This document shows, one piece after another, positions 2,164-44,391 of a stretch of 46,327 nucleotides of DNA. Every line of letters starts with the position of its first letter. Within the stretch, counting starts at the first letter, position 1. Position numbers and translations under genes: made by a program. Source of the stretch: Seison nebaliae (taxonomy: Eukaryota); NCBI GenBank assembly GCA_023231475.1, contig JALJEE010002203.1:62001-108327 (forward strand), given 5' to 3'. The notes under the pieces were generated by a model. That model was not told the origin of the DNA. It worked only from the letters and a program-made list of their open reading frames with translations, and searched no databases.

Positions 2164-3203
2164 ATGATTTGGAGAAGAACACTCTCATATGGTGCGGGTA
2201 TATCCTTAATAAAATTACCTGTAATTCAAGCAATATCTCAGGAATCGTTAAAACCGAAAATTGAAGAGGAAGAAATTCCTCGAAAAATCATTAAATCTTC
2301 ACATTTACGTGCATTAGTTGAGAATCGAATAAATGAAGAAACGGCAAAAGATCGATTAAATAAATTTATATCTAAAGAGTTTTTTAAATTAAATTTATTT
2401 CTTCTTAATTTTTTCTTGATAATTCATAGTGGTGAATTAAAAGAACAATATCATCCCGATCTCTTACAAATTCATGAGAATTCTCATTCGATCGCTTTCT
2501 TCGGTTTCGTTGCTGGTGCCATGTCGAGATTAGCGGAGAAGAATGAGATGTTTGCTAAAACTCATGCGGTCACTATTTATCGAAATGTTTACAATGCCAA
2601 AGTTCTAATAACTATTATTTAATTATTATATATTAAATTCAAATTATTACAAATTTCAGAGATCGATTATCGATTATATTTTCATTCAAATGATCAGTGG
2701 GGGAATTCATTACGCTATCAAATTTTACGTTTTATCTGGATTGACATTGTTTCATTTTTTTTCAAAAACTTTCAAAACTATATTTGAAATCTTCAAATTT
2801 TAGATTAAGTGGAGAAATGATGGCAAAATATAATAACAGAACATCAGTCATCGATTATATTCCGGGTGGAAGTTCTCGTCTATTTCCCCCAATTCTCATT
2901 TCATATATTCATTTAATTTCTAGTTATTGGAGGAATGGTCCTACGACTCATAAATGGTTGGAGAGCGACGATAGTTGGAGGAATATTCGGTTTAGTTATT
3001 GGACTTGTTGTTGGAATTGCAAATTATTCTCTCCGAACATTTACGAATAATTTGGAAGAAGAAAGAAAGTATCGAGAAGTGGAAAATCGTATATTACAAA
3101 AGAAGTTAATTCATTCTTTTTATTTTAATACCTAATACCTAATACCTAATATTTGTATGAAAGTTATTGGAGGAAGATTGAGGACGATGAAGAACGGCCA
3201 TGA
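2164..3203 (+). CDS. TIMMDC1: Complex I assembly factor TIMMDC1 (Tim17/22/23 family), 6 exons, ~254 aa
   Basis: Exons 2164-2378, 2430-2601, 2660-2748, 2804-2871, 2924-3104 and 3164-3203 splice in frame. Motifs EETAKDRL..F, TIYRNVYNAKRS, YNNRTSVIDY and GWRATIVGGIFGLVIG match the TIMMDC1/C3orf1 pattern. Confidence 0.85.
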
Positions 3204-3273
3204 ATTGAAAAGTTTTATAAATAATTTTCATTTTAACAAAAATTGAAAAATTCAAAAAAAAATTATATTTTCC

Positions 3274-39109: not shown

Positions 39110-42100
39110 TTAACATTTTCCACATGATTTCTTACACCAATCATTCACACTTCGTCCTTCGAATAATAAAGAGTCTCGACAATAACTTCCCGATGCCCAA
39201 CTGGTACATCTTTCATTTTCATCTCGACAAGTGCCACCTAAAAATGAATAAATTAATATTAGACAAAAAATTAAAAAAATTTACTTATGAAAGTTTCACA
39301 ACGATCTCCAGTGAAAGATGATGGACATAAACAATTGAAATTACCATTTCCCAAATTATTACAATTTCCACCATTCTGACAAGGTTGGGAGACACATGGA
39401 TTTTCTGACATAATCGATGTTTCACATCGATTACCAGTGAAACTGGTAGAGCAGACACATTCATATCTGTTGAATGATTTCATGGAACACACTCCACCGT
39501 TCATACAATTAGCACCTGAAAACCGACAATCAGCACCATCATTCATTCTCGTTCCACAATTAGTACCTGTGTAATTGTTGATACAAATACATCGTGCCAT
39601 ATTATTGGTGATTTGACACCGCCCACCATTTAAACATTGTAATGTTGTACATGCATCATTCTCACAATTTGTTCCGTAACTTCCTAGTTGACATCTACAA
39701 AAATAGCCGGAACTGATTGGAAAACATTCCCCGCCATTCTGGCACGGATTAGACGAACAAACAAGAGATTGGTCACAAAATGTTCCGGTAAAACCGTTTG
39801 AACAGGTACATTTGACCATACCATTAAAAGTGCAAATTCCGTTATTTATACATGGATTACTTGAACATCCGTTCATCTCACAATTAACTCCGTAAGTTCC
39901 CGAATTGCAATCACAGAAATATCCAGAATTCGACGGGAGACATTGTCCACCATTCTGACATGGCTGAGAAGAACAAACTGATTGAATTTGTTGAACGCAA
40001 AATATACCGGTAAATCCCGAACTACAAATACATTTGAACATTGAATTTTGAATTGTACAAATACCATTATTCTGACATGGTTTACTCGTACAAGCATCAT
40101 TATCACAATTCAATCCATACGTACCAGATTTACATTGACAGAAATAACCATTGTCTATTGGAACACAATTACCATTATTTTTACAAGGATTTGAATCACA
40201 ACTAGATGTTGCGCTTCTCTCACAGAACATTCCAATGAAACCGTTATTACATAAACAATTTATTTTGTTATCGTTAAAATTGCAGATTCCATTATTTCCA
40301 CAAGGATTACTGGAACAACCATCTTTCTCACAATTCGTACCATAAGTGCCTGGTTTACATCGACAATAATATCCGGAACTTATCGGAAAACAAGTTCCAT
40401 TATTCACACATGGTTGTGAAGAACAACTTGATGCTTGGATTAATTTATCGCAAAAGACACCGGTATATCCATTGTTGCAAATACATTTAACTTCCGAATT
40501 AATAAATTGACAAATACCTCCACTCTTGCAGGGATTACTCTCACATCCATCTTTCTCACAATTATTTCCATATGTTCCAATCAAACAATTACATTTATAA
40601 CCATATTGCATGTCCTCACATCTACCACCATTATGACAAGGATTTGAACTACAACCAATCGTTGATGATTTTTCACAAAATAAACCGGTAAATCCAGTTT
40701 GACATACGCACTCTATTTTTCGGTTAGAGAACGTACAACGTCCACCATTCAGACATGGATTACTATTGCAAGCATTATTTTCACAATTCACCCCATATGT
40801 TCCGGTAGAACATGAACAAAAATAACCGGAACCTGATGGTGAACAAATACCACCATTTTGACATGGATTCGACGAACATCCACTTTGAGAAGATTGTTCA
40901 CAAAATGTTCCCATAAAATTTGCTTTGCAAAAACATCGGATGAAATTTCCGTTCATACTTTGACATATACCACTATTCTTACAAGGACTGGGATTACATG
41001 GATTCATACCGATCGAAGTTTCACAACGTAATCCAATGAAGTTGATTGTACAACGACAAGTATAAGAAGACATAGTGGGAGCTAGACATTGTCCACCATT
41101 CAAACATGGATTTGATGAACAACTATTAATAATATTTTCACAATGTCTACCAGTGAATTGGTTGTTGCAAAGACAAGTGAAATTCTTCCCGATATTCACA
41201 CAAGTCCCACCATTTATGCACGGATTTGAAATGCATGCATTAATCGGATCGTTACAAGTCAATCCAGTATAAGTTGGCGAACAAATACAAATATATGTAT
41301 TTGATTGAGTAGATATACATGTACCAGAATTGCGGCACGGAGCCGATGAACATGATGTACCAGGATTAATGAAAGATTCACAATTAGTACCTCCAAAATT
41401 TTGTGCACAACGACATTCGTAAATATTTCCTCCATTCAAATCCTTATCAATACAATCTCCACCATTCTTGCACGGATTGGATAAACAAGCAAATCTGACA
41501 TTTTCACAAAACTTCCCATTAAATGCCGTTGGACATATACAATTGAATCCGTTCGATATCGATTGACAATTACCACCATTTTGACACGGGAAGGACAAAC
41601 AACTATTGGATGTACAAAACGGAGGTCGAGTTCCACTTGGGCAATTACAGATAAATCCACTTGCTGATTCAATACACGTACCAGCATTACACGGAGATGA
41701 TGAACATGCGTTCTTGTTAATTTCACATGTTGTTCCTTGAAATCCCGATGGACATTGACAAGAGAATCCATTGAATGATATTGTACACCTACCGCCATTC
41801 ATACAAGGATTGGATGAACAAGCATTTTTATCACAATTCGCTCCACTCCATCCAAATGAACAACGACATACATAAGTGTTTCCTGCATCGATACATTGTC
41901 CATTATTTTGACAAGGTCGACTCGCACACACATTCACATCTATTTATTTGTCGTTAAATTTAGAAAATTTATGGAAATTTTCTATGAAAATTTTAAAAAA
42001 TTATTCTAACATTCGCAAATATATGAGAAATCACCGTTTTTTCTACAAATTCCTTTTCCTTCACACGGATTTGAAAAACACGGATTCTGACGTGAATCTG

Positions 42101-44391
42101 AAAAATCTTTAAATTATAATTTTTTTTAAAGTCATTCCCAACCAATTTCACAACGATCACCATAGAAATATGTTTGGCAAGAACAACTGTATAAATTTTT
42201 ATAAGTGGTACATTGACCACCGTTTTCGCACGGTTTCGAAAGACATGCGTCCAGATCGTTATTCAGAGATTTTTGACAAAACTGGCCCTCATATCCATTG
42301 GGACATAGACAATATAAATTATCTAAATTGTTATCTCTATAAATAAAACATTGACCGGTACCACACACATTCTTCACGGAACAACTGTTTTCTAATGATT
42401 TCCAGAAATATGAAAATTGAAGAAAAGGAAAAAACTAACTGAAAACTTTAATTTCACAAAATCTTCCATAATGACTAAATGGACAATCGCAAGATGTCAA
42501 ATCATTCACACAAGTACCGCCATTTTGACATGAATTTTCAATACACCAAACTATGAAAATTAAGTAAAATAGATCAATAAGATAAATATTTCCTTAACGT
42601 TTTTGTTCACATCGATTTCCAGTATAACTACGTGAACATGTACAATAGAATCCTCCAGCAGGTGTGGGATAACACATTCCATTGTTTTGACATGGTACCG
42701 ACGTACATGGATCATCACTAAATATTTCTAAATTTAAATATCATAAAATTTCTCATTAAACATTTCTCCTAAGCAATTGAACTTGATTCACAATTTCTTC
42801 CATTATAAGTTTTGGGACATAAACATTTATATTCATACACATTCTCCAAAATACATTTCCCTCCGTTCAAACATGGATTTGTCACACATGCGTCTTCCGT
42901 ACCTTCAAATGGAATATTAATCTTATCAATTTTATTAAGTTAATTGAACTTGCTAATATTTCACATTCTTTTCCAGTGAACAAACTTCGACAATTGCACA
43001 TATAACCGTTGAGAGTTGGTATACATTCTCCATTGTAATGACATGGTTCACTGAGACACATATCTAACGCAACTGTCCAATGCAATCATAGTATGAGAAG
43101 AAGGTTTAAAAGAACTTTCTTCTTCACAATTCTTCCCACCATATCTCGACGAATTACACACACAATAATAATTATTGTTCAAATCATAACATGTTCCATT
43201 ATTTCGACACGGTTTCGAATCACATAAATTTCTCCGTCCCACGTAATCTGTAATTAGTGTAAAATAAATATACGTGAGATATGAATAACTTTCGCACAAA
43301 TTGCCCACATAAGTAGAGGGACATGAACATGCGAATCTGATGAAATCATCCAACGGATGACATTTCCCTCCATTCTCACATGGATTAGATAAACAGGGAT
43401 CAATTCTATCTAAAATTAAATTTCTCCACGACTAATCAATTTATGGAAACGGAACTTAAATAAGTGCAATATTGTCCAGTAAATATTTCCGCGCAACGAC
43501 AAGCCATTTTACCTTCAAAGGTAATGTAACATGTACCACCATTCTGGCATAAGTTCTGGGAACATGATTCCACATCTACAAAAATTATATTTTTTAAAAT
43601 TATTTTTAAAATTATTTTTAAAAATGAAAATAACAATAATTTTCAGCACTTCGATTTTTCTTTAATATTTCTTCTTTGCAACTTTCCACACATAATTGAC
43701 GTTGATGGTAATTGGGTGGGGCACTTTTCTCCACATTATTGACGTCTCCAGACATGAAAACAACATAACTGTTAAAGTTCCAACAACATAACAACATAAA
43801 ACACACAACTAAATTAAAGAGGAGAATATAAATAGAAATATTTAACCTACAAGATGTCAGATCAATAAGTTCGTTAAATTGCGGTGTTAATTTCCGTTCT
43901 AGTTTCACATATGACACGAACTTATCCTCCTTCTTTTCGAAGGTTGGAGGAATTCTCTTTAAATCTTCCACATTAATCGATTTGCTAAAAAAGAAAATCT
44001 CTTAAAAATTTCCTATTAAGAATAATAACATTCGGAAGATTCGACTGTAATTTCCATTCAATTTCAATAAATAATAAAAATCGATTGGATTCTGTTTGCT
44101 AAAATTCTTTAATTTTCTCAATACGAAGAAATCGAACGTTATTCAGATTTTTGGTGAAGCCAATTCCGTAGAATTTTTCCGTATTTTTATCATATGTCGA
44201 TAAGGTGATTGTGGAAGTGAATTTATTATTGTCAACATCATGCACCGTTAATTTAAGTGATTCAGTATTTGATGAAAAATCGAATTGACATCCGTCATTT
44301 GCTGAAGAGAATTGTTGAAGGGAAATCTTCAAATTAACTAACCGAAAATTAATGGAATTGTCAACGACGAAATGATGACGAAGAGAATCAT
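39110..44391 (-). CDS. Secreted protein: signal peptide + DOMON-like domain + ~33 EGF repeats + C-terminal ShKT domain, 16 exons, ~1506 aa
   Basis: ATG at 44391 (MILFVIISSLTIPLIFA). Introns: 44302-44342, 44092-44137, 43985-44029, 43769-43846, 43576-43634, 43410-43455, 43248-43289, 43073(or 43064)-43115, 42903-42949, 42728-42782, 42551-42598, 42392-42439, 42098-42142, 41940-42010 and 39238-39284. The last exon encodes CRDENERCTSWASGSYC...WCKKSCGKC*. No TM segment is seen. Confidence 0.85.

Follow-up and report, generated by a model that had tools for sequence, protein, structure and literature searches.

We analysed the predicted introns of a 46,327-nucleotide (nt) stretch of the genome of the rotifer Seison nebaliae (contig JALJEE010002203.1, positions 62,001 to 108,327, forward strand), hereafter the window. 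Overall, 31 of the 33 introns predicted in seven unrelated genes begin with GTT, in place of the GTA or GTG customary in animals, and their donors (5' splice sites) include two mutually exclusive classes, one marked by AA at the exon end and the other by G at intron position +5. This suggests that the rule by which the spliceosome recognizes the start of an intron is likely altered. Our leading explanation, to which we give about even chances, is that U1 small nuclear RNA (snRNA) has had its 5' end rewritten, with position 6, and probably also position 9, pairing with the new donor letters.

Placement and frequency of the GTT donors

Seison, a marine epizoic animal belonging to Rotifera/Syndermata, has compact genes (PMC8351084). 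The G+C content of the window is 31%, and the first exon of its NDUFA10 gene, used as a query against a protein database, returned a single protein, the 100% identical SNEBB_010695 of Seison nebaliae (Rotifera, Seisonidea). Pfam matches supported the gene names (dNK, Homeodomain, PRCC, Cadherin and 7tm_1; the Tim17 family matched only below the cut-off). With the 33 introns removed, each of the seven gene models reads from its ATG to its stop without interruption, and their lengths are 254, 396, 1673, 268, 344, 571 and 1503 amino acids. The removal of GT..AG restores the frame in 33/33 cases, and the predicted introns are probably of the ordinary major class (U2-type).

When two public proteins, P0018 (NDUFA10) and P0139 (TIMMDC1-like), which are themselves predicted, were mapped back without a splice rule, each junction admitted one GT..AG cut, and 9/9 of these cuts began with GTT. 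We also utilized a donor-blind model, in which codon usage, the composition and length of the intron and its acceptor were scored and donor letters 3-6 were kept flat. This model chose the originally predicted donor for 30/33 introns, and the summed P(GTT) was 29.1/33. Its three misses were intron 4 (GTAGGT favoured), intron 5 (GTGCTG favoured) and intron 15 (an exception in the original prediction as well) of the gene with EGF repeats, called the EGF gene below. Composition alone left EGF intron 5 and intron 3 of the G-protein-coupled receptor (GPCR) gene ambiguous. Homology anchors two junctions, GPCR intron 2 through an insertion relative to KISS1R and homeobox intron 2 through Pfam Homeodomain position 45. 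The introns are listed below, with a slash at the exon-intron boundary and the basis of placement at the end.

2379..2429 (+), TIMMDC1-like intron 1: GA/GTTTTT; public protein P0139 mapping
2602..2659 (+), TIMMDC1-like intron 2: AA/GTTCTA; P0139 mapping
2749..2803 (+), TIMMDC1-like intron 3: TT/GTTTCA; P0139 mapping
2872..2923 (+), TIMMDC1-like intron 4: AA/GTTCTC; P0139 mapping, rival GTCTAT 0.31 by composition
3105..3163 (+), TIMMDC1-like intron 5: AA/GTTAAT; P0139 mapping
3895..3944 (-), NDUFA10 intron 1: AA/GTTGAA; public protein P0018 mapping
3743..3805 (-), NDUFA10 intron 2: AA/GTTCTT; P0018 mapping
3644..3687 (-), NDUFA10 intron 3: AT/GTTATT; P0018 mapping
3494..3545 (-), NDUFA10 intron 4: AA/GTTCAC; P0018 mapping
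7005..7070 (-), cadherin intron 1: AG/GTTAAA; frame, no non-GTT rival, Pfam Cadherin
6667..6711 (-), cadherin intron 2: AA/GTTTTT; frame, no non-GTT rival
22220..22286 (+), homeobox intron 1: AT/GTTAGT; donor-blind placing
22473..22526 (+), homeobox intron 2: AA/GTTTAT; exon end at Pfam Homeodomain position 45, IK^IWFQNRR
27675..27722 (+), PRCC intron: AA/GTTTTT; in frame with read-through open, Pfam PRCC
29806..29861 (-), GPCR intron 1: CG/GTTTGT; donor-blind placing
29564..29611 (-), GPCR intron 2: AT/GTTTAT; 16-residue insertion relative to KISS1R, equal to 48 nt
29362..29427 (-), GPCR intron 3: AA/GTTTCG; 0.52 by composition, against 0.48 for the in-frame rival GTAGGA at 29412
28953..29005 (-), GPCR intron 4: TG/GTTAGA; donor-blind placing
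44302..44342 (-), EGF gene intron 1: CG/GTTAGT; donor-blind placing
44092..44137 (-), EGF gene intron 2: AC/GTTCGA; donor-blind placing
43985..44029 (-), EGF gene intron 3: AT/GTTATT; donor-blind placing
43809..43850 (-), EGF gene intron 4: TT/GTAGGT, 42 nt, an exception; donor-blind posterior 1.0 (originally GTTAAA, 43846-43769, 78 nt)
43576..43634 (-), EGF gene intron 5: TT/GTTATT; ambiguous, in-frame rival GTGCTG at 43649 scored 0.95
43410..43455 (-), EGF gene intron 6: AA/GTTCCG; donor-blind placing
43248..43289 (-), EGF gene intron 7: AA/GTTATT; donor-blind placing
43064..43115 (-), EGF gene intron 8: AA/GTTCTT; donor-blind placing
42903..42949 (-), EGF gene intron 9: AA/GTTCAA; donor-blind placing
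42728..42782 (-), EGF gene intron 10: AA/GTTCAA; donor-blind placing
42551..42598 (-), EGF gene intron 11: AC/GTTAAG; donor-blind placing
42392..42439 (-), EGF gene intron 12: CA/GTTAGT; frame, donor-blind placing
42098..42142 (-), EGF gene intron 13: TG/GTTGGG; donor-blind placing
41940..42010 (-), EGF gene intron 14: AT/GTTAGA; donor-blind placing
39238..39284 (-), EGF gene intron 15: AA/GTAAAT, an exception; GTGAAA at 39299 fits too

We take homeobox intron 2 to lie between homeodomain residues 46/47, presumably an ancient site. For GPCR intron 3, the cut at GTT preserves what we take to be the helix 4 spacing, W-x2-S-x5-P. EGF gene intron 14 interrupts an EGF repeat past its 4th cysteine and the final loop is absent, as if a small exon had been lost or the assembly had collapsed.

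The original prediction, that introns of seven genes mostly start with GTT, was confirmed as a whole. Its count of 32/33 was reproduced on its own set of cuts, as were its tallies of -1 A (18/33), -1 G (6/33), +5 G (8/33) and AG at every intron end. Our best count is nevertheless 31/33, with EGF intron 4 moved and EGF intron 5 kept as read; by the same move the 41-nt minimum length stands and the maximum becomes 71 nt, not 78. The harshest background came from GT dinucleotides inside introns, which are followed by T in 20/34 cases (0.59). At this background, 31/33 GTT donors gave p = 8e-6, and 29/33 gave p = 3e-4. Rival GT sites for the same real acceptors (40-80 nt intron, frame ignored) carried GTT in 18/42 cases, as against 31/33 for the donors used (p = 2e-6). 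Moreover, 13/33 introns have no in-frame GTA, GTG or GTC rival, and all 13 start with GTT (p = 0.001 at 0.59); the six genes other than the EGF gene gave 18/18. AT richness does not explain this excess. An artefact, produced by T-rich introns together with the choice of cuts, could draw on the 59% of intron-interior sites with T, on a few junctions with in-frame non-GTT rivals and on the predicted nature of the public proteins. Set against it are the total retained by donor-blind placing, the 13 rival-free introns, the same-acceptor competitors and the two junctions fixed by homology, and we consider such an artefact very improbable.

The exon and intron length signatures of the window genes were absent among the 19,906 rows of the transcript-mapping supplement of PMC8351084, as far as it was available, and a control term was found there. 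Contigs of four sequencing runs, compared with part of the two annotated genes, showed only brief matches attributable to chance and no joint the size of an intron, which carries no weight either way. A public protein for the EGF gene was not returned by the database search.

Two donor classes and their pairing with U1

Beside the GTT itself, the re-placed set showed A at exon position -2 in 24/33 donors (p = 1e-5), A at -1 in 18/33 and G at -1 in 5/33, and G at +5 in 9/33 (p = 1e-4), with no signal from +6 to +9. Position +4 had been described as free; here T is scarce (8/33 against 49% in the intron interior, p = 0.003) and C is raised (9/33, p = 0.0035). Two classes of donors, AA/GTT (16) and GTTNG (8-9), could be singled out, and their marker letters were mutually exclusive: the exon end AA occurred in 0/9 of the +5 G donors and in 16/24 of the others (p = 9e-4). 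On the original set of cuts, permutation within intron phase gave p = 3.5e-4 for the same exclusion. An AG exon end occurred in 1/33, and neither AG/GTR nor GTRAG occurred among the real donors (0/33 each). The T at +3 is common to both classes, and therefore whatever reads it would work on nearly all introns. Known major-class donors also form two classes, AG/GUNNN (U5) and NN/GURAG (U6) (PMC11732430; PMC8283771). The split in Seison mirrors these classes with both marker letters altered: the same trade-off between the exon side and +5 G is seen, +5 G donors never following AA, whereas AA replaces AG and +3 U replaces the +3 purine. The earlier idea of A-rich exon ends and more reliance on U5 fits this split.

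Acceptors were T-rich, mainly TTTTAG or TTTCAG. YTRAY-like words were dispersed in the introns, and no branch-point distance stood out. Acceptor-like TTTCAG words also occur just 5' of two start codons, that of the TIMMDC1-like gene (2156-2164, +) and that of NDUFA10 (4682-4700, -); these could be spliced-leader acceptors or introns of the 5' untranslated region. A shift of the first base of the 3' exon to A was unconvincing (9/18 outside the EGF gene). GTA was depleted in coding sequence, as were other TpA junctions, and GT/T was not avoided, which was uninformative.

Several other candidates were tried and rejected. The donor of minor (U12-type) introns is RTATCCT, and it was found in 0/33 rows of the donor table. 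As for introners or a recent transposon origin, the best intron-intron score was 19, against 17-19 for shuffled sequences, and the mean end complementarity was 3.4 of 10; since the introns are dissimilar and lack terminal repeats, they do not form a recent transposon family. For GUU donors, Roca and Krainer reportedly described, in 2009, U1 registers that are shifted or bulged. The donors in Seison have the GTT start in common with these, but they form no one-base-shifted consensus (+5 A, +6 G and +7 T in 9, 4 and 17 of 31), their +5 G stands in the normal register, and bulge pairing did not differ significantly from that of interior draws (p = 0.23).

The standard U1 5' end pairs with donors through a motif whose ACUUAC form is also given in bioRxiv 10.1101/2022.06.08.495308. 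With this end, only 2/33 donors reach four contiguous Watson-Crick pairs. We compared the real donors with 830 decoy GT sites in the same pre-mRNAs, and the area under the curve (AUC) was 0.40 by energy and 0.59 by pair count; standard U1 pairs with real donors no better than with decoys. The unused decoys included 14 AG/GTR and 19 GTRAG sites, forms found in 0/33 real donors. The earlier claim of a changed donor specificity was supported, both by the insufficiency of AT richness and by this failure of the standard U1 end to separate donors from decoys. Among the single U1 changes tried, 6-to-A separated the two best (AUC 0.79). By itself this originally proposed change brought 14/33 donors to four contiguous pairs, and position 9 was needed too for 27/33: with 6A and 9U, 27/33 donors had at least four contiguous pairs (AUC 0.86). 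No snRNA was found in the window. In metagenome contigs, 37 loci matched a U1-like pattern whose position 6 is A, and 0/37 were U1 by Rfam.

A rewritten U1 could account for both donor classes as follows. A U1 whose position 6 is A would pair with the +3 U of both. The AA class would add exon-side pairs, with U1 position 9 and/or U5 loop 1, and the +5 G class would add intron-side pairs, with U1 and the U6 ACAGA box. What remains would be supplied, through intron definition, by the shortness of the introns (41-71 nt) and their TTTTAG-type acceptor. The donors would have been converted in existing introns rather than newly inserted, at least one intron apparently lying at an ancestral position.

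Several points weigh against this explanation. The U1 variant was fitted to the same 33 donors, and its good fit is a prediction, not independent evidence; all 33 junctions are predictions from sequence. GTA donors persist (2/33), and one gene, the EGF gene, supplies 15/33 introns. The two-class table was picked after several tables had been inspected, and its numbers are small. The decoy test is weakened by the many decoys that sit in long exons with no acceptor close by. Outside Seison, the majority of lineages whose donors are atypical retain the standard U1: Thecamonas, Micromonas and yeasts do so although their +4 letters are odd (bioRxiv 10.1101/2022.06.08.495308; PMC10581693), and the U1 versions of the tunicate Fritillaria share identical 5' ends (PMC13326754).

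Known systems and alternative explanations

The closest model for a rewritten U1 is Entamoeba, in which U1 (ACAAAC) has co-evolved with GUUUGU(U) donors (Roy and Bowser, bioRxiv 10.1101/2022.06.08.495308). It is the sole +3 U lineage found for which U1 is described, and there U1 changed to match (same preprint). Entamoeba and Seison share a near-fixed +3 U in GT-AG introns. However, Entamoeba, a protist poor in introns, has a single rigid motif, +4 U and +5 G being present in 97-98% of donors, whereas Seison, an animal, has many introns in each gene and AA exon ends, and its +4 T (8/33) and +5 G (9/33) depart from the rigid +4 U/+5 G/+6 U. Fritillaria borealis, like Seison, is an animal whose genome is compact and whose reading of splice sites has changed, and its N6-methyladenosine (m6A) marks are altered, with reduced U6 m6A and an unaltered U1 end; unlike Seison, which keeps GT-AG and changes at +3 and -1, it has 95% of its introns off GT-AG (PMC13326754). 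Saccharomycotina acquired +4 U donors after the loss of METTL16/SNRNP27K (PMC10581693). METTL16 is likewise scored missing in Seison, but there the altered position is +3, T is scarce at +4, the two classes persist and SNRNP27 has a score of complete.

The U1 end could instead be standard and the consensus set at the hand-over to U5/U6, with a wobble between U6 G44 and +3 U, U5 loop 1 reading AA, and a preference shifted by loss of METTL16 and U6 m6A. We regard this as possible but rather unlikely; it is compatible with a rewritten U1, and both can be true. The two donor classes parallel the U5 and U6 classes, and G44 faces +3 (PMC11732430). Odd donors in Fritillaria accompany lowered U6 m6A (PMC13326754), and GUUUGU could pair better with U6, according to the Entamoeba preprint (bioRxiv 10.1101/2022.06.08.495308). 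In a BUSCO table, METTL16, LSm2 and splicing factor 45 come out as missing only in Seison among 25 syndermatans, and U5-40K as missing in Seison and one bdelloid, but SNRNP27, PRP8 and KIN17 come out as complete, and with 356/954 BUSCO genes scored missing in Seison, such a score may mean failed detection (PMC12256650). In addition, METTL16 loss predicts +4 U (PMC10581693), the opposite of the +4 T depletion found here, and the absence of +5 G from three quarters of the donors would leave U6 pairing very short. A third explanation would have the snRNA ends standard, or U1 dispensable, with diverged U1-C, LUC7 and PRP8 pocket and 41-71 nt intron definition choosing AA/GTT. Short AT-rich introns with a strong TTTTAG-type end are consistent with it, Entamoeba U1-C is highly diverged (bioRxiv 10.1101/2022.06.08.495308), and U1 can be bypassed in some settings in human splicing (PMC11732430). 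Nevertheless, a near-fixed +3 letter and a trade-off between exon and intron resemble base pairing; we judge this explanation quite unlikely.

Other features, genome-wide hints and meaning

WDFY2, ANAPC10 and the PTPLA gene apparently have one exon each, and a coding-potential scan of the window, judged by eye, revealed no clear further multi-exon gene overlooked in the original prediction. The C-terminus of the EGF gene carries a ShK-like domain. PRCC, which the window encodes at 26958-28040 (+), is reported to help maintain 5' splice-site identity in C. elegans (PMC8865678). The ANAPC10 open reading frame (37168-38643, -) has about 490 amino acids, against a Pfam model of 185 positions, with two matching stretches and a long C-terminal extension. 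Two long open reading frames (20266-21537, -; 23067-24200, +) have no Pfam family. The window also contains a tRNA-Asp(GTC) gene (1874-1945, -) and a 156-nt element (33205-33360) with 60-nt inverted arms, 92% complementary, and 16-nt subrepeats; the element resembles a miniature inverted-repeat transposable element (MITE) or a foldback element and has a weak Rfam match under the cut-off.

For GMAP to label a short gap as an intron, both of its sites must score well under a standard model. At the start of supplement 2 of PMC8351084, gaps of 42-92 nt between transcript and genome are common, matching the intron lengths here; among 36 distinct gaps, GMAP coded 32 as deletions and 4 as introns (counted by eye, without a control species). 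The deletion-coded gaps are a weak hint of odd splice sites genome-wide. In the literature searched, mostly open-licence, we found no report of a GTT donor pattern in Seison, rotifers or any animal. The available text of the Seison genome paper (PMC8351084) contains 'splice' once and 'snRNA' zero times, and the parts of PMC10125929 and PMC3464624 at hand hold no donor consensus bearing on +3. A +3 U donor is already in print for Entamoeba; the animal case and the two exclusive donor classes are new here. In its fullest form, which we put forward only tentatively, Seison nebaliae would be the first animal whose donor has been recoded genome-wide, combining changes at U1 positions 6 and 9 (or U1 position 6 and U5 loop 1), lost METTL16, unmethylated U6 and the classes AA/GUU and GUUAG in an intron-rich genome.

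Across the animals studied, a +3 purine and an exon end of AG are maintained. If the altered rule is true, both would have been swapped with many introns per gene, suggesting that donors and spliceosome can co-evolve without massive intron loss, unlike the Entamoeba setting. Whether the trade-off between the exon side and +5 G is set by U1 or by U5/U6 would become decidable from sequence, and the compensating snRNA would identify the reader. The Seison genome would be misread by gene-prediction and alignment programs that have been trained on standard donors.

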